From: Geosiphon pyriformis uo1
Taxonomy: Eukaryota; Fungi; Glomeromycota
Assembly (NCBI GenBank): GCA_016748015.1
Contig: JAAOMT010000011.1
Coordinates: forward strand, 1 to 64,000
Reading direction: 5' to 3'
DNA: 64,000 nucleotides
Shown piece by piece: positions 25,250 through 57,736 of this stretch (position 1 is the first letter of the stretch; the number at the start of each line of letters is the position of its first letter). A program made the translations under genes and the position numbers. The notes below the pieces were generated by a model, which worked only from the letters and a program-made list of their open reading frames with translations, was not told the DNA's origin and did not search any database.

Positions 25250-26370
25250 ATTTGACATTATGTTTTATTTGTAATATTATAGTAATTAAGAAACTAACTA
25301 CCCAATAAGCTCTTTTAGTTGTTAAGCAACTTTTAATTGTTTTAGAAGCATCTTTTTTCTCTTTAATTAAAAGTTTTAAAAAACACACCAAAACAACTTT
25401 AGTGTTATTATAATAATTATCAAAAGTCTTAAAACTTTAAATATTAAACAAGTAGTTTTCTTTTGCTGTTACCACTTTTATTTTTTAAATAATTAAAGAC
25501 AATTAAACTTTAACAGCAAACTTCTTTGTAATTTTAAAAAAAAGTTTTTTTTTGGTATTTTTTAAACCACCAGTTCTGTGTTTTTAAAAACTTTAAACTT
25601 GTTACCAATATTAATAATAACAATTTGCTGCAATTTAGCTAAAAACAATAATGTTTTTTCTAATTTAAACAATAGTAACAACAATATATTTATTAAAATA
25701 AATACAAATAAATAAATACTTATGTTGTTTAATACAATTAGTTTTAACAAATTATTGTTTAATATTTATTAATATTTTATAAATTACATTAATTATTTAA
25801 TTAATTTAATATAATATTTAAAATTTTTTTATTAATTATTACAAATAATTTATATTAATTTACAAACATAATTAAAAATTATAATTAATTATTCAATAAG
25901 TTTTTTTTTCATTGATTTTTAAACTATTAAAAGCTAAAAATTAAAAAATATTTATTTATTTATTTAATTTTATATGTTTACTATTTTTTTTAATATCTTT
26001 TTATTTAAAAATTAATAGTAGTTAACAGTTTTATTAGAAATATATTTAAAAAAAAAACAACTTAAATATTAAAAAATTAAAAAATTTTATAAATTTTATA
26101 AATTATATGAATTAGCAAAAAAACAAAAAACAAATTAAGTTAAAATAAAAAAATTAAATAACAATTAATATTAATTTGTTTAAAAAACTAAAATTAAATC
26201 TAATTGTTTTTTATTTATATCTAACCAAATTAGTAAATTAATTTATAAAAAAAAACTTCTTTCTCTTTTACTTCCAAATAATTCTCAAAGAGTGCATTTT
26301 CTAAAAAAGAAGTTTTTTTTATTTTTTCTTTTTAAGTTTATATCAACATTTTTTTAACTAATAACCTCTT
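25250..26370. other. Extremely AT-rich border zone (includes the eroded LINE2 5' region)
   Basis: Near absence of G/C, especially 25750-26250. Confidence 0.75.
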
Positions 26371-26374
26371 TGTC

Positions 26375-27431
26375 ATGGATTTAAAAACTGCTTTTAACAG
26401 TGATATGTCTAAAAAAAAAGCACCTAAGGGTACTCTCTATGGTCCTGCTGGTGGTTTTTTCTCCCAAAAGAAAAAAGTGGTTCTTGGTAATATTAAACAT
26501 TCAAGTAATAAAAGAGACATTTTTTTAGTCAAACTTAGTTCTAGTGACATGTGCTTGAACATAGATAGTGAGTCTAGTTGTGGTGAGGACAATATAGTCA
26601 TAAAAAATGTTAACAGTGGATCTTTTTTAGACTCAGCAGCTACTACTCCTAAAGCAAAAAGAGTGAATTCTAACATGGTCTTTGGGTCCCCTCTTGGCTC
26701 CTTCAATTATGAAATAAAAGAAGAAGTAAAACTCCTTCCACTTCCTCTTGGTATTTCTTTGGAAAAAAATAGATAGATTCTAAAATTGTGAAAACTCCTG
26801 TGAAAGTTTCTGTTAGAAAGTCATTTGCTTTGAATATCAATCTTTTGGCAGTGAAAGACAAATCTGCTATAGCAAAGACTTAGTTTATTAGAAAAAATTT
26901 TTCAACAATCAATGATTTTGGGAGGGCCACTACTTCCTTAAAATTTGAAGGAATTATTCAATTAATGTTTACTTTTGAGGAGAGTTTGATTAAGGCTATA
27001 TCATTGGCCAATGAAAAGGGAATCATCATAAACAGCAATTTTAAAAAACAAGAAATTCATTCAGATCGGACTGTGGTCATCAAAGAAATTTCCATGAACA
27101 CACCAAAGGAAATGATCATTGTTGTTCTAGCTAAGTTTGGCGAAATTAAGTCAATCAAAATCCAACTTATTGGATTGTGGCAAAAAGCTGTGGTAGAATT
27201 TGCTGAAATATGTCAGGCTGTACAATTAGCTACTAAATAGTTCTTCTTGATTGGTAAAAATTCAGTGCGTGTAGTCATGACTGTAAATAATCATAAGACT
27301 TGGGCATCAAGAGATAGGTTCAGAGCATTGCTGTTTACTTTGCCAGTGGAAACAACTGCTTATAATTTGAGCACTCTTTTGGATGGGGCTGGTGGAAAAA
27401 CCTGTATCATTAATCGCTTGATGGATTCTGG
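26375..27431 (+). mobile_element. LINE2 5' portion (ORF1 with RRM-like domain), interrupted by family A element A3/A5
   Basis: MDLKTAFNSDMSKKKAPKG..., RTVVIKEISMNTPKEMI..LAKFGEIKSIKIQL..AVVEF; ends abruptly at the LTR at 27432 after CTGG. Confidence 0.8.
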
Positions 27432-28404
27432 TGTTACCAGAGGTTTTTGGTCTCTTTTCTTAAATGTTGTTAATGTTAATTTGCTGTGAATTCACATTTT
27501 CAGAAAGTAGTTGGACCTCCAGTAACTGAATTTATCTTCAAATTATCTCTTATAATTTGAACTGCTGGGCTTATAAGTGAAATGACCAATTCCTTACTAG
27601 TTACTTTATGTAATTACATTGTAGTAAATATCAACTCTTTCCCAAGAATTGCTTATCTGAAAGCTTACTAAAAATATGTAGTTACTTTGCTGTGAAAGTC
27701 AACTTTTCTACAGGAATCTTGTCTGTAGACTACTCTAATAATTATAATAAGAAAAGAAAAGAAAAATAAAAGAAATATAAAAGAAATAAAATTTTATCAA
27801 GGAAAACGTTTTCTATTCAGGCCTGGAATCACTAACAGATTATTGAAATTGGTAGCTAATCAATTTTAAAATGTTAGTTGTGTTAAGGAAATTTCAAGTA
27901 CAATAATTTAAGGATTTGGTTTTTTGAATATTTAATTTTTATTTGAATATGTAAAAAGTGATTTGTTCCAATTAAGATATCTAAAGTAAGATACTATGTT
28001 AAGATACTATAAAAAGATACATTTTCTTAAAGAGAGAAGTTTTTTTTTTATACAACTTGTTGTAGTACTAGTCTTTGAACTTGCACTTTTCTTTTTGCTA
28101 CAATTTGGGTAAACTAAAAATATATTTCGACAAACTCCAAGTTATTTTACTGAACTATTTGATTATTTCGGCCAATTTTTATTAATTTTGGTGAATTTTG
28201 ACTATGTTAAATGGTTCAAGGTATTGTGTAATTTGATCATCTTAATTTCTAAAGTACAAATCGGATTATTGATTAAGTAATAATATTTGATAATTTGATT
28301 AAATAATAAGTGATAATCGAAATGATAATAATATATGCTAATTAATAATAGGAATTATAAGGGTAATTTCATGCTAATTAATAATTAAAATTCTACTGGT
28401 AACA
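27432..28404 (-). repeat. Family A LTR (3' LTR of A3)
   Basis: Termini TGTTAC/GTAACA, adjacent PPT; shares diagnostic bases (CAGATTATTG, AGTTGTG) with the LTR at 63537. Confidence 0.93.
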
Positions 28405-30643: not shown

Positions 30644-30937
30644 TATTGTTTGGTTATTGTGTTGGTAGATTGGTAAATTGTGGTGGGTTTTGTTGTTGAT
30701 GTTAATCTTGTTTCATTCTTGAAAGGCTATCAACATTGGTGTGTAGTTTTCCTGGTTTATGGTGTACAATATATTTGTAGTCTGCTAAAAAATCATTCCA
30801 TCAAAACTGTTTGGCACTTTGTTCAGTTTTCTTTTTGTTGAGCCATTTGAGGCCAATATTGTCAGTTATGATGTTAAATTCTTTTCTATTCTTTAGGTAT
30901 TGTTGAAAGTGTTTGAGAGCCCAAATGACTACAGCAG

Positions 30938-31333
30938 TGTTACGAGTAAACTTGGTGGATATGGGAAATAATAATATTTGGTGCTCTCAATTATTAATGA
31001 TGCATCTTCTGCATAATTCTGTTGACTTAGTCTTAATTATCAGTCTCTGAAGGTCTATTCCTGGATGTGAATTTACCTATTGAGTTTTTTTGTTATAAGG
31101 CACAGAGTTTGTCTTCCATTGATTGCAACATTTTTTATAGATGTGAGCTTTTTTCTCCAAGCTAACAAGCACAGTTGTTAGGATCTGGCATTGTCTTTTT
31201 GCCCTTCTGGTAAGCTAACAAGATAACATTAATATCCAAAACTTAGGGGGAGCTTCCTTCTTTTACCAGGCTATTACGAAGTCTATTCCCAGACAGTTAA
31301 TTTTACTATGTTGCCATTCCACAAAAAAATAAG

Positions 31334-31367
<34 letters not shown>

Positions 31368-31957
31368 AAAGATAAATTAGTAATGTCAATTGCCATAATC
31401 AAGAGTGATTAGACCAAATTGTTAATCATTTGAGGTGGTTATGCTAAGAGCATCTGTCCTAAAACAAAGGTATGAAATAAGAGTTAATTCATGTAAATTC
31501 TACAAAGTTTGAGAACATGAATTCATGATTCTGATTTCTTTAATAATTGGTTTATTTCAAAAGATGAAATAGAGAAGATAATAAATGATAAAAGAGTATA
31601 AATATTTGATTCTTGTTTAGAGGTTCATATCTTATCTGTCTCTTTTTTTAACTTCTATTCCTACTTGCTTTTATACATTCTTTTGGTTTTACAGGATTGC
31701 TTTCAATTGTCTTGCTATCACTAGCTATTGCTTTGTTATTTCTGTTATTGCTTCGTTTTTCTACATTATCACTAGTTATTTTATATTATAATATGTTATC
31801 TGATGTTATTACATGTTATTCTGTATTATTCTGCGTTATAACATGTTATCCTACATTATAATGCATTATCCAACATTATTGTGTGCTATTCTGTGTTATG
31901 TCACATTTTGGTCACATTTTTTTATAACTTTGAATCGGTTTTTCTACTTGAGTAACA
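30938..31957 (-). repeat. Family B 3' LTR (1020 bp; A32 tract at 31334-31365; short TGTTA/TTC repeats about 31720-31900)
   Basis: TGTTAC...GTAACA; PPT AAGAGAGGGATAA adjacent. Confidence 0.92.
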
Positions 31958-34165: not shown

Positions 34166-36868
34166 TTAGGTTTGTGACATTCTTGACAAACTGTCGGCAT
34201 TGGTGTTCTTGGATTCTTCCTTGTAATAGATTTTGAATGAGAATTGTTGCAAATAAGTACTCCATCTTGCATATTTTTTTTCTAGTTGTGAATTGTTGAA
34301 TAACCAAATAAGTCCTTTGTGATTAGTATATAGGTCAAATAGTTGACTGAGGTAATGTTTCCAAGTCTGTACAGCCCAATAAATGGCAAAACATTCCAGA
34401 TCTGTTGTGCTGTAATTCTTTTCTGCTGGGCTCATGCTGCGACTGGCATAGACAACTGAATGTTCTCTATTGTCTAGTCTTATCTGTGATAAGACTGCTT
34501 CTAGAGCATTTTTTAAGGCGTTTATAGTGACAATGAACTATTTAGTGAAATCTGGATAAATCAGGATTGGGGATGTAATCAATTGCTGCTTGAGATAATC
34601 AAATGCCTTCTGTTGATCTTTTTTTCACAAGTATGGTACATATTTGGACAACAAATAATGAAGTGGTTTTGTGATGTTTGAGAAACCTTTGACAAATTGA
34701 TGATAATATCCTGCCAATCCTAAAAATCCTCATAATTCTCTAAGGTTGATTAGAGCTGGAAAATCCTTGACTTTTTAGACCTTATCTAGATTGGGTTTGA
34801 CTCTGTCTTTGCCAATTACATGTCCTAGAAATTTTAACTTGGTTTTTTCAAAGAAGCATTTATCAGGGTTGAGTTTCAATCTGGTATTATAAAAGCATTC
34901 AAAGATTTGTTATAGATAGAACAAATGATCATCAAACATTTCAGAGAAGACATTGGTGTTATCTAGATATACTACAACTGATTTCCACAGGATTCTTTTG
35001 TATATGATATCCATGAGGTGCTAGAACGTGGCAGGAGCATTACAGAGTCCAAAAGGCATTATGTTAAACTCGAAGTTTCTGTTTTGAGTGGTAAATGCTG
35101 TTTTTTCTTTGTCTTTGGGGTTCATTTCAACTTGCCAATAACCACTTGCTAGATTTAATGATGAGAACCATTTTTTTTTTCCTAGATTGTCCAGAATTTT
35201 CTGGATGAGGAGAGTGGAATAACTATCTCCTTGTGTAACACTATTTAGTTTTCGGTAATCTATGCAGAATCGTACTTTTCCATTTTTCTTTGTAACTAAT
35301 ACCACTGGAGAGAATTAAGGGCTTAATAATTTTTTAATCAGTCTGTTGTCAAGCATTCATTGTACTTCCTGTTTAATCAGATTATTACCAGATAGGAGTA
35401 CATAGTAAGCTTGTTGCTTAATCAGTTAAGCATTTTCTGTATCAATCTGATGCTTCACAATGTTGGTGCGTCCGAACTTATTTTTGCTGGCAAAAACATT
35501 GGCATACTAATTCAGAAGGACTTTGAGTTGCATTTGTTGCAGGGTATTTAAGTTTTCTAAATTCAATTTATTGATCTCTTCTAATATAAACAAATAACTT
35601 TCTTTTGGCAAATTCCATACTTGTGAGGTAATGTCACAAAATAAGAATAATTGTGTGAAATCTGAAATGGACTGTGGTTTGTCAGGATTCTGAATATCTG
35701 CAGATATGGAACTGATGAGGATTCCTTTGGGGATTTCAATGACATCTTCTGTTAGGTTGTAGATGGGGATTTTGAAGTGTTTATGGGCTTTGGCCGGTAG
35801 GTATAGATTAGCAACATCAGTTAGAGAACAGATTTCAGGACTGGCTTCGAATAACAGGGCTTGATCTTGGATCTTTTAATTCACCTTGAAGATGTATTGT
35901 CAGTATGGAGGAATGAAGATGATAATATCAATGTAGATAAATTCTACCTGGTCACTGTCTTCTTCCATGAAATTAACTGGTATGTTTCCTCTTCCACTTG
36001 ATCCAAATCTGTTGATTCCTTAAGCAGTGAGACCTAATTCTTCTCAGGTTGTTACTGGTGTCAATTAGGGTATTTTGACTAGAGGTAGGAAGATAGCTTG
36101 AGCAATTTTTTCTTGTGATTCTATTTTGTAAGGTCTGTCTGAATTGTTCTGTAGCATCACAATAATGTTCTCCATATAACCGGCATTGATGATTCTTCTT
36201 TTTACGTTGATTTTTTTCTTGGCTAGACTAAATCGAGAGGCAACTTGTATCATTGTACTAACAGGAATTTCTAATGCTATCTTAAGATCTATTTTTACAA
36301 AGGAATATGGGGCTATAATGATGGATGATTGTCCAGGGTATTATAGATCAAAACCAGCATTGGTGTTATGTGCTCTTTTGAAACAGATTCCTTTTTCATT
36401 GTCACTGTACTATTTTAATTTTAATTCTTTGGATAGGTTGGAATATGCGAGGTACTGCTCTGTTTCAGTAGCTTCATTAGACTCTTGAAACAACATGTCC
36501 TTAACTATTAACTTGGCTTCTTCTTCAGGTTTTGGTAGCTTGTCAATAGAGTGTAATATTTTTGGTAGTGGATTGAACATAAGATCACATTTATTACAAT
36601 ACTGGAAATGGCAAGGGATTAGGCAATGATCACATAATTTCATGTTTAGGTCAGCTAGTTTTTGTTCTTGTTCTTCTCAGGTCAGAGCCAATTCTTGGTA
36701 ATAATCTTGAAATGCATCCGGGTCATCAGTGAAAAAATTTTTGGTAATGTAATCGGGTCCTTTATATTCAAATACAAATGGGTTTTCTTTGATTTCTCAT
36801 ATTTTGCTGAGTGTAGTACCTTCAGATTTGGCACTTGCCATCCCCCATATTTCATGTTTGTCATACGG
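34166..36868 (-). pseudogene. Family B pol: end of Cys-rich domain, dUTPase, RT, RNase H
   Basis: LCDHCLIPCHFQYCNKC; IINAGY..KIAQAI; FCIDYRKLN..MPFGLCNAPATF; NADSLSR. Confidence 0.9.
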
Positions 36869-37880
36869 TGTTACCAGTAGAATTTTAGCTATTAATTAGC
36901 ATGAAATTACCCTTATAATTCCTATAATTCATTAGTATATTAATATCATTTCAAATTATCATTTATTATTTAATCAATTATCACATATCATGATTCAATT
37001 AAAATAATCTAATTAGTATAACAGAAAGTAAGATGATCAAATTACACAATACCCTGAACTTTGTAACATTCAAAAATTTGCCAAAATTTACAGAAATTTG
37101 CCGAAATTTATAAAAAATTTGCCAAAATTTACAGAAATTCGCTGAAATTATGAATAGTTCACCCAAATTAATCAATAGTTCAGCAAAATAACTTGTAGTT
37201 CATCAAAATGTATCTTTAGTTTGCTGGAATTTGGGCAAAGAGAAAAAGTGCAAGTTCATAAACTAGTACTACAACAAGTTGTATAAAAGAAGAGCTTTTC
37301 TCTTCTGGAAAATGTATCTTACTTTAGATTTATCTCTTAAAACTGTTCCTATACACACAAAAAAAAATAAATATCAAATAATTCAAAAAAACAAATTTTT
37401 TAATTATTGTACTTGGAAAATCCCCAAAACCCAACTAACATTTCGAAATTGATTAGCTACTAATTTCAGTAAACTGTTAGTGACTCCAGGTCTGGATAGA
37501 AAACGTTTCTCTTAACAAAATTTTATTTCTTTTATATTTCTTTTATTTTCTTTTATTTTTCTTATTACAATCATTAAAGTAGCCTACAGACAAGATTCCT
37601 GTAGAAGAGTTGACTTTCACAGCAAAGTAACTACACATTTTTAGTGAGCTTCCAGACAAACAATTCCTGGGAAAAAGTTGACGTTTACTACAACATAACT
37701 ACATAAAGTAACTGGCAAGGAATTGGCCATTCCACTTATAAGCCCAGCAGTTCAAATTATAGAAGATAATTTGAAGATAAATTTAGTTATTGGAGGTTCA
37801 GCTACTTCCTGAAAACGTGAATTCACAGTAGATCAACATTACCAACATTTAAGAAAAGAGACCAAAAACCTCTGGTAATA
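36869..37880 (+). repeat. A4 5' LTR (1012 bp)
   Basis: Direct repeat of 45774-46785; terminal CA mutated to TA. Confidence 0.95.
37074..37150 (+). repeat. Tandem 21-bp repeat AAATTYGCCGAAATTTACAGA (about 4 copies) in the LTR
   Basis: Directly visible; also at about 45979-46055. Confidence 0.85.
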
Positions 37881-37882
37881 TT

Positions 37883-37892
37883 TGGTGCTCTC
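37883..37892 (+). promoter_or_regulatory. Primer binding site TGGTGCTCTC
   Basis: 2 nt after the LTR; complementary to a tRNA 3' end ..GAGAGCACCA; shared with families B and C. Confidence 0.85.
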
Positions 37893-37925
37893 CCACAGAA
37901 ATAACACAGCAACAACAAATTCAAA

Positions 37926-40900
37926 GTGGCAATCACACCAGACACAGCAACTCTAGAATATTACCAGTCAATTTACACCCACTACAAGCAAAGATTCAAC
38001 ATTCCAGACGGAATTGAAATTGTAAAGAAATCAGTATACCAATATATTGAAAACCACATCAACAATTATCTTTTTGGAAACTACAACATTTCAGAAGTTA
38101 GAAGCAACCTCTACAATAATTTAGTGCATTATTCACATTTGGGAACAGAAGACCTGAACAGTGAAACACTTGCTACCTACTTTCAAGAACTTAATTTTAA
38201 TATTATTAAGTATTGTGAAGAAAAATACCCAGTACAGTCTAAATACTCTTTTGACTTTGAATCAGAGACAGAAACAAGCAATAAAGGCAAACAAAGATTG
38301 AAGCAATACTCAAGAACCACTCCAAACACTCCAACACTACAAAAGACAACTGCCAAACACTTGCAAACATCTGAACAAGGAACCAGTGTCAAATTACCAC
38401 TTTCTATTATACCATTTCCAATTTCACTTGTTCAACCACAAACACCAAGTTCACCACTTAGCCGTTTCTCCAGACCAGAAGATTTTCAGTCACCTAGAAA
38501 TCCTACTCAACAGCAGGAACCAATATCAACAAGTGCCAATATCATTGATTACTTACAGAAAAACGAAAGTAATCACTCAGAAAGCTTGGAAAGTAAAGAA
38601 ACTGAATCAAAACCAGAAGAAATTCCAGAAAATGAAGAAGAAATGGCAACTGCTTACATTGCAAAAATCCCAGAATTCACTGGTGAAGACAATGATACCA
38701 GTCCCCAAGAATGGCTTGACAAAGTTCAAAAAGCAGGAGATGCAAATGGTTGGATTGCAGCAAGAATGCTCAAAGCAATTCCCTACTTTCTCCAAGAAAC
38801 AGCAGGAGAATAGTTTGAAAATTTAGAAGAACCATTTGAAAACTGGCAAGCATTCAAAGATGTTTTTCTACAACAATTCACTAACAACAATACCTCTATC
38901 CCTCTCAGAAACCGCTTTCACAATATCAAACAAGAAACATCTGAATCTGTTATGACCTATCTTGGAAGATTTAACAAACTTCTCAGATGAATCCGACAAT
39001 TGGAAACCAATGACTACTATTCTGATGCTCAAATTCTGGATCAGTTTATAGCAGGGTTAAAAGACAAACTGATTAAGAAAGTCCGTCCACATGCTCCAGC
39101 AGACTTAGCAACTCCTATTAAACATGCAAAGAGCTATGAAATGGCAATAGAAAAAGCAAACCACACCAAACTTGTCAACCTAGCTATTGAAAAAACCAGC
39201 TCAGCAGCTGAAAAAAAAATAGACCAACTTACAAAGAAAGTTGAAAACTACTTTACAAACCAACAACAACAGCAACAATCACAAAGATATCAACCACTAC
39301 AATGATGTAACCAAAACAATTTTGGTTACCCATCTAACAACCAACTTCAAAATTGTCATTATTGTGGAATTTCAGGACACTGAAAACAAGATTGCAGAAA
39401 ATTGCAAAGAGACCAACAAAACAGGAGTAATCAATGTTATTCTTTATCACAACCATCTTATTACCAACCTCCACCACCAATTTATTATTTATCAAGACCA
39501 CAAAATTAAAACAATTATTATCTACCAGCTCCACAACCAATACAGCAACAATATTAGCAACTTTTACCAATTCAGCAATATCAAACACCATCTATTCAAC
39601 AATATCAAATACCAGCCAGAAGATTGGTTCAACATAACCAATTCACATCCCAAAATCAATTTCAGAATAATAACAACAGAATTAATCCAAATAACCAGTT
39701 GGTTTCCCAAAATTTGGGCCAGCAAAGACCCAATCACTATCACACTCAACCCAGTTATCTTACAATACCAGAGGAATCGGATTTTCAACAAACTGCACTT
39801 TCTAAAGGTAAAATTGCAGCACCAAGATCAAACTCTTCTAACCACACTATTCCCTCAGCTCAAATTGCCCAAAATGCTAATCTGTCAGATATATTTCCAT
39901 TTGAATTTGAGGCAAATGAATCACCATTTCTGCTTAGTAATGCAGCAGTCAATGAACAGAAAGCAATTACTGCCATGTACACAGAAACTACAGTGGAAGG
40001 AAAACCCATTCGCTTAATCTTAGATAGTGGATCAGCTGGAAGTATTATCACTTACCAGCTGATGCAACAACTTAAACGAAATGTAGACAGACCAGCTCAA
40101 ACAGTTATTGTTACAGCTGATAGTATGAAGAAGACTCCAGTAGGAGAAATTTATGATTTCCCTTTTTCAATTGATGGAATCACCATTCCAGTTAAAGTTC
40201 TTGTTATGGATGCACCCCAATACCAAGCTCTAGTCGGAAATGATTGGCTTCACAAGACCAATGCAAACCTGAACTGGGAAACTCAAGAACTTAAAATTTC
40301 ATACCAAGGACAATATACCATAGTATTTGCAACCTGTGGTATCTTTAACAAATGATCAGAAAAAGCTCCAGTATTTGAATTTGAAGAGGAGAAAGAAATG
40401 CCACTTACTGAAACCTACATGGCTCTTGGATCAACATCCAATTGGGCTGAAGAAACCAAACAAGAGATTTTCGAAGAATCAAGGGGATGGAAGAAAGTTA
40501 GATATTCTACACCAGAACCACAGAAACAACCACTCTATATTCCACTCAAATGCAAAGATTGCAACAAAAAACTTTCATCAATGGTGCCATGTATTTCTCC
40601 AGAAGAGGAATATAAAACTTGTACCTGTTACTTTTGCAAAGCATGCCATAGAAAACAATTTGGATCTCCAAAAAGAAGTAGAAAATGGGACAACACACCT
40701 TGCCTTACATGTGGAGAAATACTACCAGAAGAATGCAATTGGATTGATGTAGCAATGAGAGGAGGAGTATGTGATCAAACCTGTCAATATGCTCTATCAA
40801 TTTCGGAAAAAGTCAGAAGAGGAACACCATTTGATGCAGCATACAACAGTGCTCTCAATAAACTTTACCACTACCCTCATGATGCTGAAATGATTTTTGA

Positions 40901-43533
40901 CCTAGCAATGGCATTAATCAATGGAGCCACTCAAGAAGATGTCCACCAAATGAAAGAAGCTGAATATATTGAGTACATCATGGAATTAGCTGGATTTGAT
41001 TATGAAGATGAAGTAGAAACCTACCACCAAATTGCAAGCCACACATATCCGACCAAAGAAGCTCAAATTCAACAATTAGAGCAAATGAACATTCAATTGT
41101 GTAAAGAATGTGTTATGCCTTGTGATGACCAATGGTGTTTAGAATGTTATGCTCTTAGCATTTCTCAGCCAGATGAAAATGATGAAAATGAAATCGAATT
41201 TGGAGTATTTGAACAAGTAGAAGAACTACCAACCACTTCCATCTATCTTCTTGAAAAGCAACCACCTCTACAACTTAAATATTTTGACAACCATGGCCAA
41301 GGAATCAGACCAGAAAAAGCACACGAAATTGATGCTAGATATGACTTGAGATATCCAGGAAAAGATACTTTGATTCTCCAACCAAAGTCTTTGACAAAAA
41401 TCAATCTAAAAATTGCTCTTGAAATTCCACCAGGAGCAATGGTTCAAATTGCCTCCAGATTATCATTGGCAAGCAAAGGAATCAATATTAGAGGAGGAGT
41501 TATAGATGCAGGATACATTGGAGACATTACTATTATGTTACAAAATGAGACAGACAAACCATTCAAAATTGAACATGCTGAAAAAATTGCTCAAGCAATT
41601 TACTTACCCTTAATCAACATTTCGGGTTTACAATCAGTAAACAACAGAGAACAATTGGGAAAAAGTGAAAGAGAAACTCAAGGTTTTGGTTCAACTGGAC
41701 GATTTACAGTTCCAGTAAACATAGTTCTTAATACACAAAATGAATCTCACCAGATTCTTCAACTTCCTCAGCCAATTACCATTTCATTTTTTGGAGAACA
41801 TCACGAAATTTACACTTGCTCAAAACCCAAATCTTTGAATCCAATGAACAAATCTGTTTGAAGCATGAAATATCAGTTCCAAACATTTATATTCCCAAAG
41901 GAATGAAAAAATTTTGAGTTACATTTTACAACCCCAATAATTACCCTATTGTTTTATTAAACAAATTAAAAATTAGAATCATACACAGCAATATCTTTCA
42001 AGATGAAAACTCTCAAATTGTCTCTAATTTTATCGAAATTATAAAGCACACTCTACTCCCAAATCCAAATATCATTCCCACTACTGAAAACTACCACTTG
42101 TTGGAAGAAAAACTCTCTTGAATCAATATAGGTCCCTTAGAACCTCAACAACAAAGACAATTGAAACAATTGATAGCTGAATTTGCAGACATATTTGCAA
42201 AAGACAACAATGACTTGGGAAAAACAGACATTGTTCAACATCAGATCCATACAGGAGATGCTCTACCAAAACGTCAACAAGCTTATTAAGTGCCACCTGC
42301 CAGCCACCAATTTATTAGAGAAGAGGTCCAAAGAATGCTCAATAACGGATTGATTCAACCATCAAGAAGTCCTTGGGCCTCACCAGTAGTTTTGGTTAAA
42401 AAGAAAAACAGAAAAATTAGATTCTGTGTTGATTATAGACAACTGAATAGTGTTACAATTGGAGATGCCTACCCTCTTTCAAAAATTGATAACATGCTAG
42501 ATGCTCTGGGAAAAGCCAAGTTTTTTTCAACTTTAGACCTGGAAAGTGAATACTGGCAAGTCGAAATGGACCCAAAAGATAGACCCAAAACAGCATTTAC
42601 CACTCAAGGAAGAAATTATGAGTTTAATGTTATGCCTTTTGGACTCTGCAATGCACCAGCAACATTTCAGCGATTTATGGATGTTGTCTATGAAGGGTTT
42701 TTGTGGCAATCAGTAGTTGTTTATCTTGATGATACTAATGTATACTCACCAAGCTTTGAAGTCTATCTCATTCACCTGCGAGAAGTTTTTCAATGATTAC
42801 AGAAAGCAGAATTAAAGTTAAATATTGAGAAATGTCACTTTGGAAAAACAAGTTTGATCTTTCTTGGACACATAGTTAATAAAGATGGAATCAAACCAAA
42901 TTCAAGAACAATCAATACTGTCAAAAACTTTCAAACTCCAGAAATACTACAGAACTAAGAAGATTTGTGGGATTAGCCTCTTACTATCGAAAATTCATAA
43001 AAGGATTCTCAGAAATTGCCAAACCACTCAATTATCTTACCAACAAAAACGTATCCTACAAATAGACTGAAGAACAACAAAAAGCTTTTGAAATTCTCAA
43101 AACAAAATTGACAACAGCCCCAATTCTTGCTTACCCAGACTTCAACAAACAATTCCAATTAGCTACTGATGCCTCACACATAGCATTTGGTGCTATCTTA
43201 TCACAATTGGATAAAAATGGCCAAGAACAAGTTATTGCCTATGCCAGCAGAACATTTAAGCCAACAGAACTCAAATATGGCTCAACTGAATTAGAAGCTG
43301 CTGCAGTTATTTGGGCTCTTAAACATTTTCAACAATATCTGAAAAATGAAAAAGAATTTGACATAATAACGGACAACATTGGCCTCAAATGGCTCAATAA
43401 AAAGAAAACTGAACAAAGTGCCAAACAATCTCAATGGAATGACTTCCTAGCAGACTACAGATATATTGTACACCACAAACCAGAAAAACTACATACCAAT
43501 GTTGATAGCCTTTCAAGAATGAGACAAGATTAG
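37926..43533 (+). pseudogene. A4 gag (N-domain, capsid, CCHC knuckle)-protease-Cys-rich domain-dUTPase-RT-RNase H polyprotein, with stops and frameshifts
   Basis: ORFs 37926, 39000, 39624 and 40398 share one frame; ILDSGSAGS; dUTPase motifs YDL, GVIDAGY.G, KIAQAI, GFGSTG; RT YLDD; RH ATDAS..ELEAAAV..NVDSLSR. Confidence 0.93.
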
Positions 43534-43590
43534 TACCAACAACAATTCCACCACAACTTACTAACTTACCAACAAAATAACCAAACAAGA

Positions 43591-44942
43591 ATGGATTCCA
43601 GAAACTACAGCAATCTTAAAATTATTTGGAGACCCTTACCATGCCAGAAAACTGGTCTCCAAGTGAAAAATACCGCTTACAACACTAATCAAAACAATAT
43701 TTCATACACCAGAACAAAATTTATTATAAAAATCACAGAAAACCAAACCAGCCATTCAGATTAGTACAAGAGAATGAAAAAGAAACAATTTTATACAACA
43801 TGCACACAGATCCGTTTTCAGCACACTTGGGAAAAGAGAGAACAATTCAAAGAACCTTTGAACATTATTTTTGGCCTCACATGCAAAAAGACATTTGACA
43901 ATATGTAAAATTTTGTGATAACTGCCAAAGAAGAGGAGGAACTCGCCCCACAGAACTTTTAAATCCAATCAAAGTTGGACAACCTTTTGACAGAGTTGGA
44001 ATTGATTTAGTCAGACCATTACTTATCACAACCCAAGGAAATCGTTATATTGTAGTTGCAGTGGATTATCTTACCAAATGGCCTGAAGCTAGAGCCATCC
44101 AAAAAGCAGATGCAAAATCAGTAGCAAAATTCATCTATGAAGACATTATCTGTAGACATGAATGCCCAATTGAACTCTTATTTAATCAAGGAACACATTT
44201 TGTGAACAACTTGATACAAGAAATTTGTAAACGGTTCAATGTCAAAAGATTTCTATCATCACCTTATCACCCTCAAACAAATAGACTTGTAGAACGTTTC
44301 AACAGAACATTGTGTGAATCTTTAGCCAAAGTCTCAACAGACTTTGAACAAGAATAGGATATCTTTATTCCATCAGTGTTACTAGCATACAGAACACTAA
44401 AACAAGATACTATGAAACACACACCATTTGATCTTACTTATGGAAAGACAGCAACATTACCAATTAATTTCACAGTGGAAACATACCCAGTGCAACCAAT
44501 CAATAAAGAAAACTTTCAAGAGACACTTCAAAGAAGAGCCTACACTCTTCTTAGTACACTGGAAGAAAAAAGAAGAATAGCAACAGCTCATATTGAACAT
44601 TCCCAAGCTCAACAAAAAGAAAGACATGACAACAAATTATCATCTATTACCAACGAATTTAAAGTTGAAAATAAAGTTCTCTTACACAGAACAAAGGCTG
44701 AAAAACAATGGAGTGGGAAATTTGAAAAGNNNNNNNNNNNNNNNNNNNNNNNNNNNNNNNNNNNNNNNNNNNNNNNNNNNNNNNNNNNNNNNNNNNNNNN
44801 NNNNNNNNNNNNNNNNNNNNNNNNNNNNNNNNNNNNNATTCCACAAATTGGTACACATTCCCCTTTAATTAATCCTGAAGATATTCCCCGAAATTTAGAA
44901 CCAATAATTATAATAGAACAACAACCAAACTTGAACACTTAA
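43591..44942 (+). pseudogene. A4 integrase (separate ORF after the RNase H stop), disrupted; no chromodomain
   Basis: ATG at 43591; H..H..CDNC, IDLV, QGTHF, VERFNRTL, TPFDLTYG. Confidence 0.9.
44730..44837. other. Assembly gap (108 N)
   Basis: Run of n. Confidence 1.
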
Positions 44943-45085
44943 ATTTTACAATAATTCTCTACTAAAAACACAAAGACAAAAATAGTAAATAATTACAAAA
45001 CACCCAAACCCAAAAACAAATAAAAACCCCATATCCAAAAAATAATTTTCTTTATTCTCTCTTTTCATAATTAGTCAATTTTATC

Positions 45086-45793
45086 ATAATTATTCCTCGA
45101 AATATTCAACAAATATTCCAAAAATTAATGTTAGCCTTGAAAACACTTCCTGACTTATCTATAACGATTGATGGAAGTCAAATTAAATACATTCAGAAAA
45201 AAACCACAGCCCCAGTAGCAAATCATTTACAGAACTATCACCTCTATAAAAGAGAAACAAAAAGTCACTCTGAGAATAGATTACCAAAACTTTTGAAGCA
45301 GGCACTAGAAGAAAATCTGCTAATTGCCTCTATTAACATTCCACCAAATGCTACAATGCAACAAAAACTATTACTACTTCTTAATGAACAGAACAATGAA
45401 CACACCCTTATCTATAGATACTTTCAAATTGGAAAAACACTTTATAAACGAAAACTGGAACTTGAAGCAACAAATCTCACTCCTGAAGTTATACAAAAAC
45501 AAATCTACAATAAATTCAAAACAGCAGCTGGACCAACAAACACTTGCTACAAACTTAGAGCAGCTTTTAGACTTTATGATTTGTTTAATACTTGTGAAAA
45601 TGTTCTACAAAATCCAATACTGCAATCAATGAAAGTCCAATACATTGGCAAACTCACAGAACTGAAATTTCAACAATTTTCAGACCAGATTACTTCAATC
45701 ATTTTAGATCACTATCTCAATATTACAGATAGTGTTTGGACTTTGACGGAGCTCAGTCTTGAGGAGGAGATTATGTTACCAATAGAATTTTAG
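45086..45793 (+). CDS. A4 ORF3, unknown protein of about 235 aa in the env position; frame open, start ATA here (ATG in A2/A3)
   Basis: Stop-free 221 aa from 45128 plus 14 upstream codons; runs through the PPT into the LTR; homologs in A2, A3, B and C. Confidence 0.75.
   Translation: MIIPRNIQQIFQKLMLALKTLPDLSITIDGSQIKYIQKKTTAPVANHLQNYHLYKRETKSHSENRLPKLLKQALEENLLIASINIPPNATMQQKLLLLLNEQNNEHTLIYRYFQIGKTLYKRKLELEATNLTPEVIQKQIYNKFKTAAGPTNTCYKLRAAFRLYDLFNTCENVLQNPILQSMKVQYIGKLTELKFQQFSDQITSIILDHYLNITDSVWTLTELSLEEEIMLPIEF
45761..45770 (+). other. Polypurine tract GAGGAGGAGA
   Basis: 3 nt before the 3'LTR. Confidence 0.85.
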
Positions 45794-46785
45794 CTATTAA
45801 TTAGCATGAAATTACCCTTATAATTCCTATAATTCATTAGTATATTAATATTATTTCAAATTATCATTTATTATTTAATTAATTATCACATATCACGATT
45901 CAATTAAAATAATCTAATTAGTATAACAGAAAGTAAGATAATCAAATTACACAATACCCTGAACTTTGTAACATTCAAAAATTTGCCGAAATTTACAGAA
46001 ATTTGCCGAAATTTATAAGAAATTCGCCGAAATTTACAGAAATTTGCCGAAATTATGAATAGTTTACCCAAATTAATCAATAGTTCAGCAAAATAACTTG
46101 AAGTTCATCAAAATGTATCTTTAGTTTGCTGGAATTTGGGCAAAGAGAAAAAGGGCAAGTTCATAAACTAGTACTACAACAAGTTGTATAAAAGAAGAGT
46201 TTTTCTCTTCTGAAAAATGTATCTTACTTTAGATTTATCTCTTAAAACCGTTCCTATACACACAAAAAGAAATAAATATCAAATAATTCAAAAAACCAAA
46301 TTCTTTAATTATTGTACTTGGAAAATCCCCAAAACCCAACTAACATTTCGAAATTGATTAGCTACCAATTTCAGTAAACTGTTAGTGACTCCAGGCCTGG
46401 ATAGAAAACGTTTCTCTTGACAAAATTCTATTTCTTTTACATTTCTTTTATTTTCTTTTATTTTTCTTATTACAATCATTAGGGTAGCCTACAGACGAGA
46501 TTCCTGTAGAAGAGTTGACTTTCACAGCAAAGTAACTACACATTTTTAGTGAGCTTTCAGATGAGCAATTCCTGAGAAAGAGTTGACGTTTACTACAATG
46601 TAACTACATAAAGTAACTAGCAAGGAATTGGCCATTCTACTTATAAGCCCAGCAGTTCAAATTATAGGAGATAATTTGAAGATAAATTCAGTTATTGGAG
46701 GTTCAGCTACTTCCTGAAAACGTGAATTCACAGTAGATCAACATTACCAACATTTAAGAAAAGAGACCAAAAACCTCCAGTAACA
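45774..46785 (+). repeat. A4 3' LTR
   Basis: TGTTAC...GTAACA; direct repeat of 36869-37880. Confidence 0.95.
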
Positions 46786-48635
46786 ACAGATAACCATCCA
46801 ATCTACTGAGAGCTTGTCTCCAAGCAGCTTTGATCGGAGTTTCTTTTTGTATCCAATTATTAATCAAGATGGTATATTGACACATTTTGTCACATGTCTC
46901 TTCTTTGCCAGATACATCATTCCAGAATCCTTTATCTAGCAGGATCTCACCACAGACAAGACATGGTGTACTGTTCCATTTGCCTTGTCGTTTCGGTTTT
47001 CCGAATTTTTCTATTATATATGGTCTGCAATAGTATTTTATGGTAGTTGGCTATTTTTTGTTGTCTCTAATATATGCGCCCATAGTAAATAACTTCTTTC
47101 CACAATCGACACATATTAGTCTTGGAGGTTGGTAAAATAGATTTCTTTGGTCCAAAGTTACATATCCTATTGATGATAATTGGGGCTCTTCTTCAGCTCT
47201 GCCTTTTCTTTTTTCTTCCCAGGTTGGTGGTGGGGGTAGTTCAGTTTGATAGTCATCCATTCATGAAATCTGATAGGTCTTGATGGTTGGTGGCAGTAGT
47301 GTGTCTTCGAATTCAATAAGGGGTTCCTTGGTACATTGGATTTTAAAGTGTCTGCACATAGCTGAGACTTAGGCATGCTGTCTGTTGAATGTGAGTTGAA
47401 GTTCTTGGGTGTTCCAGTCGAGAGTAGTGTTGACTTTTGACAACCAATTGTTTTCTACTAGAGCTTAATATTAAGTAGCTTCTATGACAAATACTTTGGT
47501 AGGAATCTGAATTCCATTAATTTTGAAGAGGAAGTTGTTAATTTTTCTTATTGGGGTTTTTGTGTTTCCATCTGCCATAATAATCCAGGTGGTAGCAGCA
47601 TGGTCTACTCAGTGACCTAGTTGGTCTATGAGCTGCTTTGTAATTATGCTACCGGCTGATCTACTATTCAGAATTAACTTAATGTTTATTCTTCCAACTC
47701 TGGCATCAGTATATAGGTCTGTTATTGGTTTATCTTGATTGATGGCTGCTCCACTAAAAAGACTATGGGTGTTCAAATTATCAATGTCAAAAAGAAATAT
47801 GGCAGTTAGAGTGGTGTCCTCAGTAATAGTGGCTGGTGGGATGTTGCTTTTTGTTTGCTTGAAAGGTTGGAAGATTTGTTCTACATCTTTTTCTTCCATA
47901 GGTGTAGATTTATCAAAACCCTGGTCTTCTGTGAGACTAAAATAAGAAGCTTGATTCGAGTATTCAGTTGGTGTTGGTTGAGATTGGGCAGGACCATAAA
48001 GAATTGGTTGAGACAGTTCACTGCTGGTTTGTGCCTAATTGTTGTTGAGATTCCTCCATCCCTGATTATAGTCTATAGCTCGAGGTCTGGGCTGACTATA
48101 AGGAGAAGTTTGATAGTGGGGGATTGCTTGTGTTATTGATGATGGTTAATAATAATTCTGGGGTGGTGGTTGAATATACGGGACTTGTTGTGCATATTGA
48201 GATGGTTGATTTTAAGGTATGGGATATTGGGATATCATGCTTTGCTAATATTTTGGTTGCTGATATTGGTTTCCTTGATTTTGGTCCATGATCTTTTTTC
48301 TGCAGTTCCACACAATGTGTCCAGATTTCTGGCAGTAGTAACAGTTGTAGAGATCAGTTCTCCAAAGTTGTTGCTGTTGTTGACAGTTCTGTTGCTGCAA
48401 GTATCTGTTGTTGTTATTTTCTCTCTGTTGTGGTGGTTGATAGGTTCCTGTAGTTCTGGCTAAGAATCCCTTAATTTTCTGAGTTAGTTTTTCACTCAAT
48501 TGGGTTATTTTTGCATCAATGTCCGAGGTTCTATTAATGGCTAAATTAATGGCTTGAGTATGATTTGCTTCTTGTTCTGCAGACTCAAAATTATAAGTGA
48601 GAGCAATAGTGTCTTGTAAATTGGTCGGATGGTGG
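46786..48635 (-). pseudogene. Family B gag C-half, zinc knuckle, protease and first part of the Cys-rich domain
   Basis: CYYCQKSGHIVWNC; LILNSRSAGS; LICVDCGKKL. Confidence 0.88.
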
Positions 48636-49296
48636 TGTTACAGGTGACAAGTTCTGGTGTTGAATTAAATAACAACCCATAACTTGGTGCTCAAAAAGCT
48701 ATTTTCGTTGATGATGTTCTGAAAGTGTTGTATTTGAAAGTTTTGATGGAGTCTTTTGTATAATAGACAGAGATTCAATAGTTGTTTTATTCAAGCTTCC
48801 CAGACTCGCAAGTCTGTTAATTTTTTTCTTGGCTTGGTGGCCAGCAATCCTCTGATAAGTAATCCGTATCTTCTGTACATGTTCTATCTACTCACAAGAG
48901 TCTTTTACCAGACAATTCTTGACGTCAGTAATCAGCACTTTTAATTAATGGGTTAGTGCACAATAACAAAATCACAGAAAATAAAGAAAATAAAGAAATC
49001 TAAAGAAATAAGCCAAGGTGATTTGTAGATTAGTATCCCGTCAATAGCTGTGATCAAGAGTTATTGTTCTAGTGTAGTTAAGTATCAATTACTATCAACA
49101 TGAAGTGTTGATAGTGGAGAGTGGATTGAGATATGAAATAATTATTTATTTGATGATTGTGTTTCTAGACTAAAAATTCTGTGGTATTAATTTCTCTGAG
49201 AGGAATCCTGGAATTCCACATTTACTATATCTACCTCTGATTGGCTAATATCTACTGACTAATAATACTATATTTTCTTATATTCTATGAGTAACA
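48636..49296 (-). repeat. Family C 3' LTR (661 bp)
   Basis: TGTTAC...GTAACA; repeat of 57737-58321. Confidence 0.93.
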
Positions 49297-49310
49297 TTAT
49301 TCCCTTCTTT

Positions 49311-49940
49311 TTAATATTAAGCTCCATCAAAATCTAATTCTTTTAATTCTCCCTCTTGAATTATTTCTTGAACTTTTTTTTCGAGTATTACTTATGTTAT
49401 TTGACTTTGTAATTCTTCAAATTGGACATTGGTCATTTTTCCTAATTGATTACTCGTAACTGTATCCATTGCTGTGTTGAGTAAGATTTCTGGTCAGTCT
49501 TGAAATCCTATATATAGCTGGTAAATGGCTCGAGCTTGTGTGGTTAGATTGTTTTTTCTCACAAATTGTTCTAGTTGTCTCAGTATTGTTGTGTCAAATA
49601 ACCATTTTGTTTTGTCAGTGTATAAATTCTGGATATTTATGTGTTGTCCCAAGTAGAAATAACAATAGTTTTTCAGAAATTTTTGCATCCACCAAGTCCA
49701 AGTTTCTCTGATAAGATCTTAGTGTAATCTGACTATTTGTTGTTTGTTTATGGCCAATTTTATTTTGGTCATGATCTTGTTAACAACATTTTCAAGTCTT
49801 TTCTGTGCTTTGTGTTGTGGTATCTTTGCCATATTTTTGTAACAAATGGTTTGTTAATTGATTGTAATTTCTATTTCTTGGTGTTGGATCAATTGAAAGA
49901 GTTGTTGTGCTAGTGAGTGGATGTTGTTGGTTATTTCCAT
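49311..49940 (-). pseudogene. Family C ORF3, disrupted
   Basis: MEITNNIHSLAQQLFQLIQHQEIEITIN..YFYLGQHI..AIYQLYIGF..LGKMTNVQF. Confidence 0.8.
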
Positions 49941-49975
49941 TTTTCTGGTATCTTTTGTCATATCAACTATGTCTT

Positions 49976-51376
49976 TATATACTCTTTTGTTGTTTAATTT
50001 TACGTGTTTGGTCTAATAATTATAATTGGTTCCCAGTCTTGTGGAATCTTATTTGGTTGGACTAGTATTCTTTGTACTCCCAGTTGTGGAATGTTATTGG
50101 TAAATGCTGATGCTATTTGGTGATATGGTTTTAATTGATCACCATGTGCTGCTTTGTCTAAAATTCTGTTGTCCAGTCTTAATTTGTAAGCTCCATTTCC
50201 TAGAATTTTTTCTATGTGAAATAGTTCATTCTATTTGGGGTCAAATTTTCCACTCTATTGTTTTTCTGCTTTAGTATAATGTAAAAGTACTTTGTCTTCA
50301 ATCTTGAATTCAACTGGTTTGTCTGGTAGTTGGTTATCATGCCTCTCTTTTTGTTTCTCTTGTGCCTTTTTAATGTTATCAGCTGCTTTTCATCACTTGT
50401 TTTCTAGAGTTTCCATTAAATTATATGTTCTTCTTAGTAACATTTCCTAAGAATTGTCTACAGTTATTGGTTCTGTTGGATAAGTGTTGACTTCTATCTC
50501 AACTGGTAGTGTTGCTGTTCTACTGTATACTAATTCAAATGGTGTTGCTTGTATAGTGTCTTGTTTCATTGTCTGATATGCCAATAATATGGATTGTATA
50601 AACAAATCCCATTTATCTTGGTTTTTTTGGCTGAGTTTTGCTATTGCTTCACATAATGTTCTATTAAATCTTTCAACTAATCCATTGGTTTGTGAATGGT
50701 ATGGTGATGATAGTGGTCTCTTAATTCCGAATCTTTGGCTTAGTTCTGCTAATATTCTATTCACAAAATGAGTTCCTTGGTTTGATAATAGTTCTTTTGG
50801 ACTTCCATGTCGACAAATCAAATCTTGATGGACGAATTCGGCAACAGATTCTGCATCTGCTCTTTGAATTGCTTTTACCTCTGGCCATTTAGTAAGATAG
50901 TCCATAGCTACTGCTATGTATCTGTTTTCTCTGCTGGTGATTATTAATGGTCCAACTAAATCAATTCCAATATAGTCGAATGATTGTCCCACTTTGATTG
51001 GTCTTAATGGTTCACTGAGTCTTGTTTTTTTTTTTCACTGACAAGCATCACAATTTTGTACATATTGTATGATGTCTGGATACATTGATGGCCAATAGTA
51101 TCTCTTTCTGGTTCTTTCTATAGTTGCTTCTTTATGAAAATGTCCTGCAGTTGGATCTGAGTGCATGTTGAACAGTATTGTTTCTTTCTCTGGTTCTGTA
51201 ATTACTCTGGTTAGCTGATCTGAATCTTTTCTATTTTTCCGATAAAGTATATTTTGGTGGGTAATAAAATATTTGGATTGTTGTTTGATCCTCTTTTGTT
51301 CTGGTTGAGATAATTTCTCCTTGAACTGTTAAGTATCTATATAATGTTGAAGTTGTTGATATTTTTGTGTGTTCAT
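49976..51376 (-). pseudogene. Family C integrase (separate ORF), disrupted
   Basis: ATG at 51376; GIDLVGP, NQGTHF, GLVERFNRTL (50447-50992). Confidence 0.88.
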
Positions 51377-51437
51377 CTTTTGTTATATTTTTGTGAGTAT
51401 TGTTTTGGTTTTGTTATATTTTTGGGTTGAAATATCC

Positions 51438-54400
51438 TTAGATTTGTCTCATTTGTAATAAACCATCAGTATTTCCATTGTCTTTTTCCTTTTTATAATG
51501 TATAGTATAATTATATGATGCAAGTACCATTTTTCATCTTGACTGTTTTTCATCTCCAAATTCTTGTTTTTGGAGTGATGTTAATCCTTTGTGATCTGTG
51601 TATACTTCAAACTTCTGGCTTAAGTATTTTTTCCATTTTATGACTGCCCAATATATTGCTAAGTGTTCTTGTTCCGGTGTTCCATAGTTCTTTTTGGCTG
51701 GTGTTAGACCTTGGCTGGCATATGCTACTGGATGTTCTCTGCTGTCTGGTTCTCTCTGAGATAGTACTGCCCCCAATGCTTGGCCAGATGCATCGGTGGT
51801 GATGATAAATGGTTTGCTGTGATCTGAATAGATCAGTACTGGAGCTTAGATGAGCTTTCTTTTCAGAATATCAAAAGCTTCTTGTTGACTTTCTGTCCAT
51901 TTATATTTTGTATTTTTGTTTTGCAGCTGGTTGAGTGGCTGTGCTATCTTGGAGAAGTTCTGAATAAAACATCGATAGTAGTTGGCAAATCCCAAGAATG
52001 ATTTCAGTTCTGTTATATTGGTCAGCACTGGAAAGTTCTTTACTATTTCTATTTTCTCTGGATCCATTTTGATGCCATCTTTGCTGACTATATGTCCCAA
52101 GAATTTTAGTTCTGTCTTGCTGAAGAAGCACTTTGTTGCATTTAACTTTAATCCTGCTCTTTTTAGTCTTTCAAACACTTGTTGAAGATGATAAAAATAA
52201 TCATCAAACATTTTTAAGAATACATTGGTGTCATCCAAGTATACAACTACTGATTTCCATAATAAACCAGTATAAATAATTTCCATTAACCATTGGAAAG
52301 TGGCTGGAGCATTGGTTAAGCCAAATGGCATTACTTCAAATTCGAAATTTCCTTCTCTAGTAGTGAATGCCATCTTTTCTTTGTCGGCTGGATTCATGGC
52401 TACTTGTCAGTAACCACTATCTAAGTCTAATGTTGAGAACCATTTGTTCCTGCCGAAAGCGTCGAATAATTCCTGTATTCATGGAGTTGGATAACTGTCT
52501 CCATGAGTTACATTATTGAGTTTCCTGTAGTCCACACAAAATCGGATTTTTCCATTCTTTTTATAGACCAGTACTACTGGTGACAACTATGAGCTCATTA
52601 ATGGTTGAATTAGCCTATTGTCAAGCATTCAGTTTATCTCTTGACAAATGATCTCATGGCTGGCTAGTGGTACTCTGTATGCTCGCTGTTTGATTGGCAT
52701 TGCATTTCTAGTCTTGATTTAATGTTGGATGATGTCAGTTCTGCCAAATTTGTTTTTGCTGGCAAAGATGTCATTGAAATTGTTGAGTAACATCCTGAGC
52801 TGTATACGTTGTAGTGAGTTTAGATTTCCTATGTTCATTTGTTCCAATTGTTCTGGTTGGAGCAAATAATATTTGTCTTGTCCATAGATTGTTTGTGATG
52901 TGATGTTGACATATTCACAAAGTTGTAGAAAGTCTGGAATGGGGTTTGGTGATTGGTTTTCTATTTCTGTGGTTAAATATCCGATGGTGGTTCCTTCTGG
53001 TATGTTGATAACATTGCCAGTGTTGTTGTAGATGGGAATTTTTATGTGGTTATAGCTTTTGGCTGATATGTGGAGATTGATCAGTCCAATCTCTCCTGAT
53101 TTACAAAGATTTGCTTCAGCTTCAAAAATCTGTTCTTGCTCCTTTTTTTTTCTTTCTATTGCTAGCATATACTGGCTATATGATGGAATAGAAATAGCTT
53201 GACTGGTTGAGATAATTTCTCCTTGGCCAACAATTTCTTCCTCCACCATATTAACTAGTATATCTATTCTACTCATTGATTCAAATTCCTGTATCTCTCT
53301 TGCTGTTATCGCTAATTCTTCCCTGTTTCCCACTGACACTAATTAAGCTATTTTAACCAGAGATAGGAATATTGCCTGTGTTATCTTTTTGTTTGGCTCT
53401 ATTATATAGGCTTTTTCTGAGTCGTTTTGTAGCATAGCAATGATATTTCCTACATATTCTGTGTCAATTATTCCTCCTCTGATGTTTATCTCTCTTTTTA
53501 CTAAACTACTCCTAGATGCTAATTAAACCATTGTTGTTGCTGAAATTTCCAGTGCTATTTTCAAATCAATGCAGGTGTGCAAATATGATTCCAATTTGAT
53601 GGCATCTTTTCCTGGATATCTCAGATCAAATCTGGCATCAGTATCATGCACATGTTCTGGCATAATACCTTCATTATTATTGCTAAACCATTTCAGTTTT
53701 TGTTCCTTGGTGAGGTCAAGAAGTGCAATATATTGTTCATAATTTGAGTCGGAATTTGAATCTGAGTTGATATTATTGTCATTGTCATTGCCATTTTGAA
53801 TGAAGCTGGAACCATTATTCTCGTCGTCATTGTTGTTGAAGTTTGAATCAGAATTGAACGATGATTCCAACTCCGATGTGCAGCTGCTGATTGGTTCTTT
53901 CTTTTCGGGGATCATGTAGATCATGCATGGTGGTGGATTGTAAATGAGGTCACAATCATCACAATATTCAAAGTCACTGAAAATTAAACAATGGCAACAC
54001 AGTCTTGTATTCAACTGTGCTAGCCATTGTTCTTGCTTCTCTCTAGTGAGTGCTAAGTTTTGGTAGTGTTCATAGAACTCTTCTGGTTCTAGGGAATTTA
54101 TGACTGGCTCTGTGTCCCAGTCAAGCTTGATGGGTTCTGGTGGGTTGTTCTTGATCTCTCTGATCTCTTCGGGTGTTACTCTTTCTATTTTGGTGATTGC
54201 CATTCTCCAAATTTTGTCATCGTCATGTGGACAACTGTCCAGTCACTGCATGGCTCTTTTTCAAACTGTTTCTATTGGGGTTCCTTTTTTTACCCAGTCG
54301 TTTATTAGAATTGTGTATTGACATGACACGTCACATGTTCCTCTATGTCTTGGAATGTTATTCCATATCTCTTTATCTAGCAAGATCTCCTCACAAACAA

Positions 54401-57400: not shown

Positions 57401-57674
57401 CAATTTCTTTGTTGATCTCAGTAATAATAGATGCAAAATTATAATTTGTTGGTAGGTTGGTGTTTTGAATTAATTCTCTATAAAAAGTTTCCCTTGCTGA
57501 TTCCGTATTCACTGGTGTTCCTAACAAAGAGGAAATCTTTTCATTAACATAGAAATTGAAGGCTGATTTGATGGATATATGATTGTGGTTTAATCCCAAG
57601 TATTGATAATAGTGTTGAAATAAAAATTTTGTGAATCCTAAATGGTTTGCTCTTATATTTTTTGATTCTGCCAC
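51438..57674 (-). pseudogene. Family C gag-PR-Cys-rich-dUTPase-RT-RNase H, disrupted
   Basis: MAYAPITKL capsid, CHNCGKQ knuckle, ILDSGSA, LCCHCL..YCDDC, DARFDL, YLDD (51846-52397), RH 51534-51776. Confidence 0.9.
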
Positions 57675-57734: not shown

Positions 57735-57736
57735 AA

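Follow-up and report, generated by a model that had tools for sequence, protein, structure and literature searches.

Integrases that leave 4-bp target-site duplications follow a published rule, a central pyrimidine-purine (YR) step (PMC4422553). Prototype foamy virus (PFV) and gammaretroviral integrases make such duplications, with VYRB as the PFV consensus (PMC4422553). In Drosophila, the ZAM subgroup targets CGCG and CGCGCg, the specificity residing in the integrase (PMC2527525, PMC5408687), and the gypsy, Idefix and 412 clades target TATA and ATAT (PMC3276498). In this work, the target sites of three Ty3/gypsy families of long terminal repeat (LTR) retrotransposons (A, B and C) were analysed in a stretch of 64,000 nucleotides from Geosiphon pyriformis uo1 (Glomeromycota; assembly GCA_016748015.1, contig JAAOMT010000011.1, positions 1 to 64,000 of the forward strand), hereafter the window. 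The original prediction, based on seven insertion sites, was that these integrases cut at NCGN, perhaps methylated. The evidence is best explained by a graded preference, which we regard as the probable reading: CG used well above TG or CA, and TA least of all. The target is likely CG-weighted, not CG-exclusive.

In the plant elements Galadriel, Phygy and Bryco, a GC-rich dinucleotide centres the 4-bp duplications of nested and non-nested copies (PMC6911290), and 5-bp duplications have been reported for the fungal chromoviruses SM-Tcn1 and Tcn12 (PMC2864245, PMC9942834). LTR sequence was reported to make up 41.2% of G. pyriformis (PMC11952901), so thousands of sites should exist. The literature searched, mostly without subscription papers and supplements, contained no target-preference report for Glomeromycotina LTR elements and no methyl-CG-directed retrotransposon integration in vivo; the supplements of PMC11952901 or repeat databases could list duplications.

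Insertion sites in the window

About 90% of the window was transposon DNA, a nest of long interspersed nuclear elements (LINEs) and the three Ty3/gypsy families. All seven insertions lay inside other transposons, and their centres were CG at one site (in one copy only), TG at four, CA at two and TA at none. Two-sided 4-bp duplications were present at three sites, the other four being one-sided flanks. Element A4, a full-length copy (36869..46785, plus strand; LTRs at 36869-37880 and 45774-46785; Pfam matches), was inserted in element B between ACGG (36865..36868, plus strand), with its CG centre in the host codon CCG, and ACAG (46786..46789, plus strand, read directly), whose CA centre is a decay product of CG. 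Element C (48636..58321, minus strand; LTRs at 48636-49296 and 57737-58321) was located in the gag gene of B between GTGG (48632..48635, plus strand), its centre coinciding with positions 1 and 2 of an Arg codon column in the host, and a second GTGG (58322..58325, plus strand, read directly). A solo LTR of family A (17292..18281, minus strand) was located in a LINE and flanked by ATGT at 17288-17291 and 18282-18285.

The one-sided flanks, all next to minus-strand LTRs, were GCAG for A1 (4253..5239; 5′ LTR 4253-5235, flank 5236-5239; host, element A2), TTGT for A2 (12752..13724; 5′ LTR 12752-13720, flank 13721-13724; host, open reading frame (ORF) 1 of a LINE), CTGG for A3 (27428..28404; 3′ LTR 27432-28404, flank 27428-27431; host, LINE ORF1) and GCAG for B (30934..31957; 3′ LTR 30938-31957, flank 30934-30937; host, the RNase H region of A3). 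The flank and LTR-end positions in the original prediction were recovered for all seven sites, as were the CG, TG or CA centres and the ACGG/ACAG difference at A4.

Ancestry of the targets

A target that was CG at insertion is expected to appear as a CpG site at that position in the host-family alignment. Five window sites were scored for ancestry (A4, C, A2, A1 and B); for the hosts of A3 and the solo LTR, close paralogs were too scarce. The A4 target was still CG in one duplication copy. In the B gag column containing the C target, 58 of the 69 aligned rows had Arg, Cys, His or Tyr (Cys 25, Arg 19, His 9, Tyr 5), and the 11 others were mostly out-of-register gene models; such a column is the mark of a CGY codon undergoing decay. 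The A2 target is probably a decayed CGT, because the window copy encodes Cys and four of 7 collinear LINE paralogs encode His (Gly in 2, Ile in 1; 11 paralogs were aligned and 4 were left out as out of register). Looking for CG in the host consensus was thus informative at A4 and C and probably at A2, but A1 and B had CA in three of three window copies. For these two sites the ancestral bases appear to be CA rather than CG, an outcome named in advance as contrary to NCGN targeting. The enrichment for CG that the prediction implied was retained, with three targets CG or CpG-derived against about 17% expected; its strictness was not.

This expectation comes from B gag, where 28 of 168 CG/TG/CA positions were CpG-derived. 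In family A the figure was 4-7% in three-copy alignments, and both misses (the A1 and B targets) fall in CpG-poor host DNA. At a background of 17%, three CpG targets have P ~0.005 and four P ~0.0008. A rough likelihood model, which uses assumed survival and concordance values, gave 0.0028 with no CG weight, 0.014 under strict CG and 0.067-0.083 when CG was weighted 10- to 20-fold.

Comparison of twin LTRs showed how CG centres can be lost. C in CpG differed at 14 of 32 positions between the A4 LTRs (0.08-0.12 in other contexts) and at 11 of 18 positions between the C LTRs (0.16-0.27 in other contexts), that is, CpG decayed 3-5 times faster than other C contexts, the assignment of contexts being approximate. 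Because CpG decay is fast, matched TG/TG duplications can derive from CG, and it is plausible that both copies of the C duplication decayed alike (about one in four or five by our own estimate).

C-to-T change between the A4 LTRs was strongest at CpG, yet reached 8-12% in CpA, CpC and CpT; non-CpG C-to-T change being also frequent, LTR divergence probably overstates age. CA/TG-to-TA differences were common among copies.

Additional junctions

Alignment of contigs from runs X1-X3 to the A4 3′ LTR (12 of 345 loose-end rows) provided two usable junctions. In X2, the LTR end continued as GCAT in one low-depth contig. In X1, a contig passed from LTR position 46776 via TTGG into an LTR start; the reference at this site was CCAG and the window copies were CCAG or CTGG, which points to CCGG as the ancestral sequence. 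Reading frames crossing an LTR end were sought in two protein sets (94 and 38), and two host junctions were obtained from each. P0131 leaves a B LTR into a LINE column whose residues in 13 other proteins are Pro (7), Leu (4) and Ser (2), consistent with C-CG-G; P0133 enters a B LTR at G-N-G-T, with Ile for Val in three of three paralogs; P0222 leaves an A LTR at A-Y-G-T; and P0233 leaves an A LTR at C-N-G-A, its single close paralog having Lys in place of Glu. The third base was G in all three protein junctions that fix it (35% expected). Among the six outside junctions no TA centre was seen and five had some CpG signature, which lends soft support to a CG-weighted target; of the 13 junctions in total, none showed a TA centre, although one could be TA. 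No related element was found in scans of viral contigs or in a metagenome scan with the LTR/primer-site pattern (72 matches); the element proteins matched none of the 191 pattern loci, and the 3 matches among all 195 loci were distant integrases.

Target motif and comparison with known integrases

With both strands folded, the outer bases of the window sites were G or C in 9 of 14 cases (P=0.019) and T-type in 1 of 14 (P=0.028). The VYRB consensus fits six of the seven sites and YR fits all of them, in agreement with the published rule (PMC4422553) and with the YR preference assumed in the original prediction. The best solved-structure match of the C integrase core was PFV integrase (E 1.7e-13). 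Thr was present at the position of PFV Ala188, and the preference then expected three bases outside the duplication was seen in 5 of 10 flanks, judged by eye. The shared features with the PFV type, namely 4-bp duplication, YR centre and avoidance of T at the first position, reflect mode of action, not kinship. The two differ in strength and host: YR use by PFV is raised ~63% over a 22% background (PMC4422553), whereas here it was seven of seven with an apparent CG weighting, and the elements are fungal retrotransposons in which no env was found.

ZAM shares the Ty3/gypsy integrase, a CG-containing target and the 4-bp duplication, but its CGCG target is near-strict, whereas here the outer bases vary and TG/CA is accepted; none of the seven sites read CGCG, or simple decay products of it, across the full 4-mer. 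ZAM is a three-ORF errantivirus, and the envelope-type third ORF of its subgroup was not found here, the extra ORF of family A being a 240-aa helical protein with no family or fold match; the accessible text of the ZAM integrase paper makes no mention of methylation. The gypsy, Idefix and 412 clades also make 4-bp duplications and have clade-specific palindromic targets, which are AT-rich, unlike the GC-rich targets used here in an AT-rich genome. In Galadriel, Phygy and Bryco the outer bases are AT-rich, unlike here, and that report analysed neither methylation nor CpG, which its accessible text does not mention. Tcn1-like and Tcn12 chromoviruses have the same Ty3/gypsy domain order, but the elements described here lacked a chromodomain and their three two-sided duplications were of 4 bp, not 5 bp.

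Explanations of the target pattern

In the graded preference, the integrases of A, B and C make 4-bp staggered cuts centred on a YR step and, by analogy with foamy virus integrase, may kink the target at this step. They would read a GC-rich VYRB-like 4-mer with CG as the best centre and TG/CA above TA, and later C-to-T decay would turn most CG centres into TG or CA, hiding them. Methyl-CG is probably tolerated, since the hosts are transposons and these are CG-methylated in the related Rhizophagus irregularis; attraction by methyl-CG is not implied.

Several observations weigh against this reading. The window sample was seven sites from three families, four of them one-sided. Arg was present at the A2 column in none of the 7 paralogs. 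The A1 target was CA in all three window host copies (GCAA and ACAA in the other two), and Ala was kept at this position in all four same-subfamily proteins (17 rows aligned). The B target, which rests on three copies, was GCAG in both other window host copies as well. The 17% background was taken from B gag and applied to the LINE hosts by assumption. Outside the window, the TTGG junction could have arisen not by insertion but by the joining of two LTRs head to tail with 5 bases lost; the protein junctions are predicted gene models with one to thirteen paralogs each; and P0131 does not fix its centre, which may by now be TA. CA/TG-to-TA decay has also inflated TA in present transposon DNA, which further weakens the argument from missing TA centres.

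An ordinary YR preference, with the CpG-derived targets and the missing TA due to small-sample chance, is an alternative that we judge improbable. In the transposon DNA of the window, CG made up 0.5% of steps, TG 7.4%, CA 7.4% and TA 7.3%. If sites were random, all seven would fall on CG/TG/CA with P=2e-6; given the YR rule, a set of seven lacks TA with P=0.065 and contains one CG or more with P=0.15. Since the YR step is already a published rule and the absence of TA reaches only this value, the reported pattern by itself lies within the known rule, and "never TA" alone is weak evidence. Two of the five testable window sites were, in addition, not CpG-derived. Target ancestry says more than the missing TA: the CpG-derived targets exceed the ~17% background at the P values given above. 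Also against chance, the likelihood without CG weight is ~30-fold below that of the graded model, and G was the third base in the three protein junctions that fix it.

Another unlikely possibility is that the integrase, or the additional protein encoded downstream of it, is drawn to methylated CG, copies landing in silenced repeats without a chromodomain. The window has a G+C content of 33% and a CpG observed/expected ratio of 0.08-0.32 outside a single island at 20-26 kb (20001..26376, not stranded; 117 CG against 309 in the remaining window), in which the ratio was 0.70-1.09. All seven sites were in CpG-decayed transposons and none in the island, which holds 11-27% of the window CG. The observation made in the original prediction is accurate, but as a signal it does not go beyond chance (P=0.48 by length, 0.11-0.44 by CG share), nesting in transposons being expected in a window that is ~90% transposon; purifying selection against gene insertions also predicts an empty island. 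In R. irregularis, transposons carry high CG methylation and most genes little (bioRxiv 2021.03.30.436303), and an alpharetroviral integrase acquired strong target preferences in vitro when C was methylated (PMC11054761, citing Kitamura 1992). Methylation in G. pyriformis is suggested by CpG decay alone. A methylation-blind CG preference would presumably pull insertions toward CG-rich genes, where selection opposes them, which also fits attraction to methyl-CG; however, two targets were probably CA/TG when hit.

The absence of a chromodomain was corroborated: 18 peptides downstream of the integrase cores of A, B and C gave no chromodomain match (E up to 0.5; the copies are decayed), a weak SH3_Tf2-1 match (E 0.002) being the only one. 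Neither the integrase tail nor the extra ORF (45071..45793, plus strand; 240 aa, helical, of no known family) between the integrase and the 3′ LTR of A4 showed a family or fold of methyl readers. Open frames occupy this place in all three families (45071-45793, 32090-32794 and 49450-50012), and the extra ORF of family A had 38 relatives among representatives. Its structural models had predicted local distance difference test values of 41 and 64, the latter being helical and partly confident. It had no Pfam family, weak Atlas matches with low recognition, and no Foldseek match at E 0.001 in the PDB or viral structures; examined as a candidate targeting module, it offers no methyl reader.

Strict NCGN cutting, with all targets CG at insertion and every TG/CA centre a later decay product, is very unlikely: each site is CG or one transition away from it, decay is fast and C shows a TG/TG pair on an ancestral CpG, but A1 and B were invariably CA in the window copies (by our own estimate, a CpG should underlie only ~1% of CA/TG columns that show no variation), the Ala-to-Thr change expected from other-strand decay at the A1 target was seen in none of four subfamily proteins, and the likelihood is ~6-fold below that of the graded model.

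Structure of the elements and of the window

The elements had the hallmarks of LTR retrotransposons, read directly (TG...CA ends, a TGGTGCTC primer site, a purine tract and a short duplication), and the Ty3/gypsy order of gag, protease, reverse transcriptase (RT), RNase H and integrase, from Pfam matches along A4 and C. In A4 the full order was gag, protease, dUTPase, RT, RNase H, integrase and the extra ORF (Pfam for the domains), with LTRs 4.2% divergent (40 transitions, 3 transversions). The dUTPase domain of family A (40356-41861, E 1.5e-19) lies between protease and RT, a position known from some fungal elements (PMC2864245). C had LTRs 9.1% divergent and matches to gag, protease, RT and integrase. 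The closest named relatives of the integrase were Rhizophagus proteins (61-65% identity). Families A, B and C share the primer-binding start and the TGTTAC/GTAACA ends (37881-37900, 57720-57736, 59610-59626) despite ~64-68% likeness of pol DNA.

The 3′ LTR at 27432 and the LTR that begins at 63537 and runs off the window belong to one element, A3 (LTRs 8.0% divergent over 463 nt). A remnant of the B 5′ LTR (59627..59876, minus strand; 10% divergent from the B 3′ LTR over 250 nt) adjoins the B primer-binding site. This LTR ends after 250 nt, joined to the A3 internal region by a deletion that took the LTR end plus ~1.75 kb of A3. Position 59627 was considered as an eighth insertion and rejected, because it marks the primer-proximal edge of the 5′ LTR of B itself. 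The order of nesting was A3, then B into A3, then the deletion of most of the B 5′ LTR, then C and A4 into B.

The CpG island is flanked by very AT-rich tracts (20060-20640 and 25200-26376), the right one leading into LINE ORF1, and contains minus-strand frames at 23057-24918; an Rfam search of the island gave no match. Peptide searches with the LINE and with B gag matched only G. pyriformis proteins (18 of 18 and 76 of 76), one of them at 98% identity. Many "hypothetical proteins" of G. pyriformis are remnants of decayed LINE or gypsy elements, including chimeras that span an LTR end, and may have inflated the counts of genes and of transposons in exons for this species.

Significance

Within the literature searched, no target preference was described for LTR elements of arbuscular-mycorrhizal-type fungi. 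CG targets hidden by decay can be recovered from Arg/Cys/His columns in alignments of paralogous proteins. With a CG-weighted integrase, fast CpG decay in transposons and genes that keep their CpG, a methylation-blind enzyme would be pulled to genes and a methyl-sensing one to dead repeats. There is a small chance that a fungal Ty3/gypsy lineage responds to the silencing mark of its host, its integrase favouring methylated CG as the cutting site, so that even with no chromodomain the copies would nest inside methylated repeats and avoid CG-rich genes. If true, this would be a DNA-level counterpart of chromovirus targeting and could help explain the ~41% LTR load of the genome.

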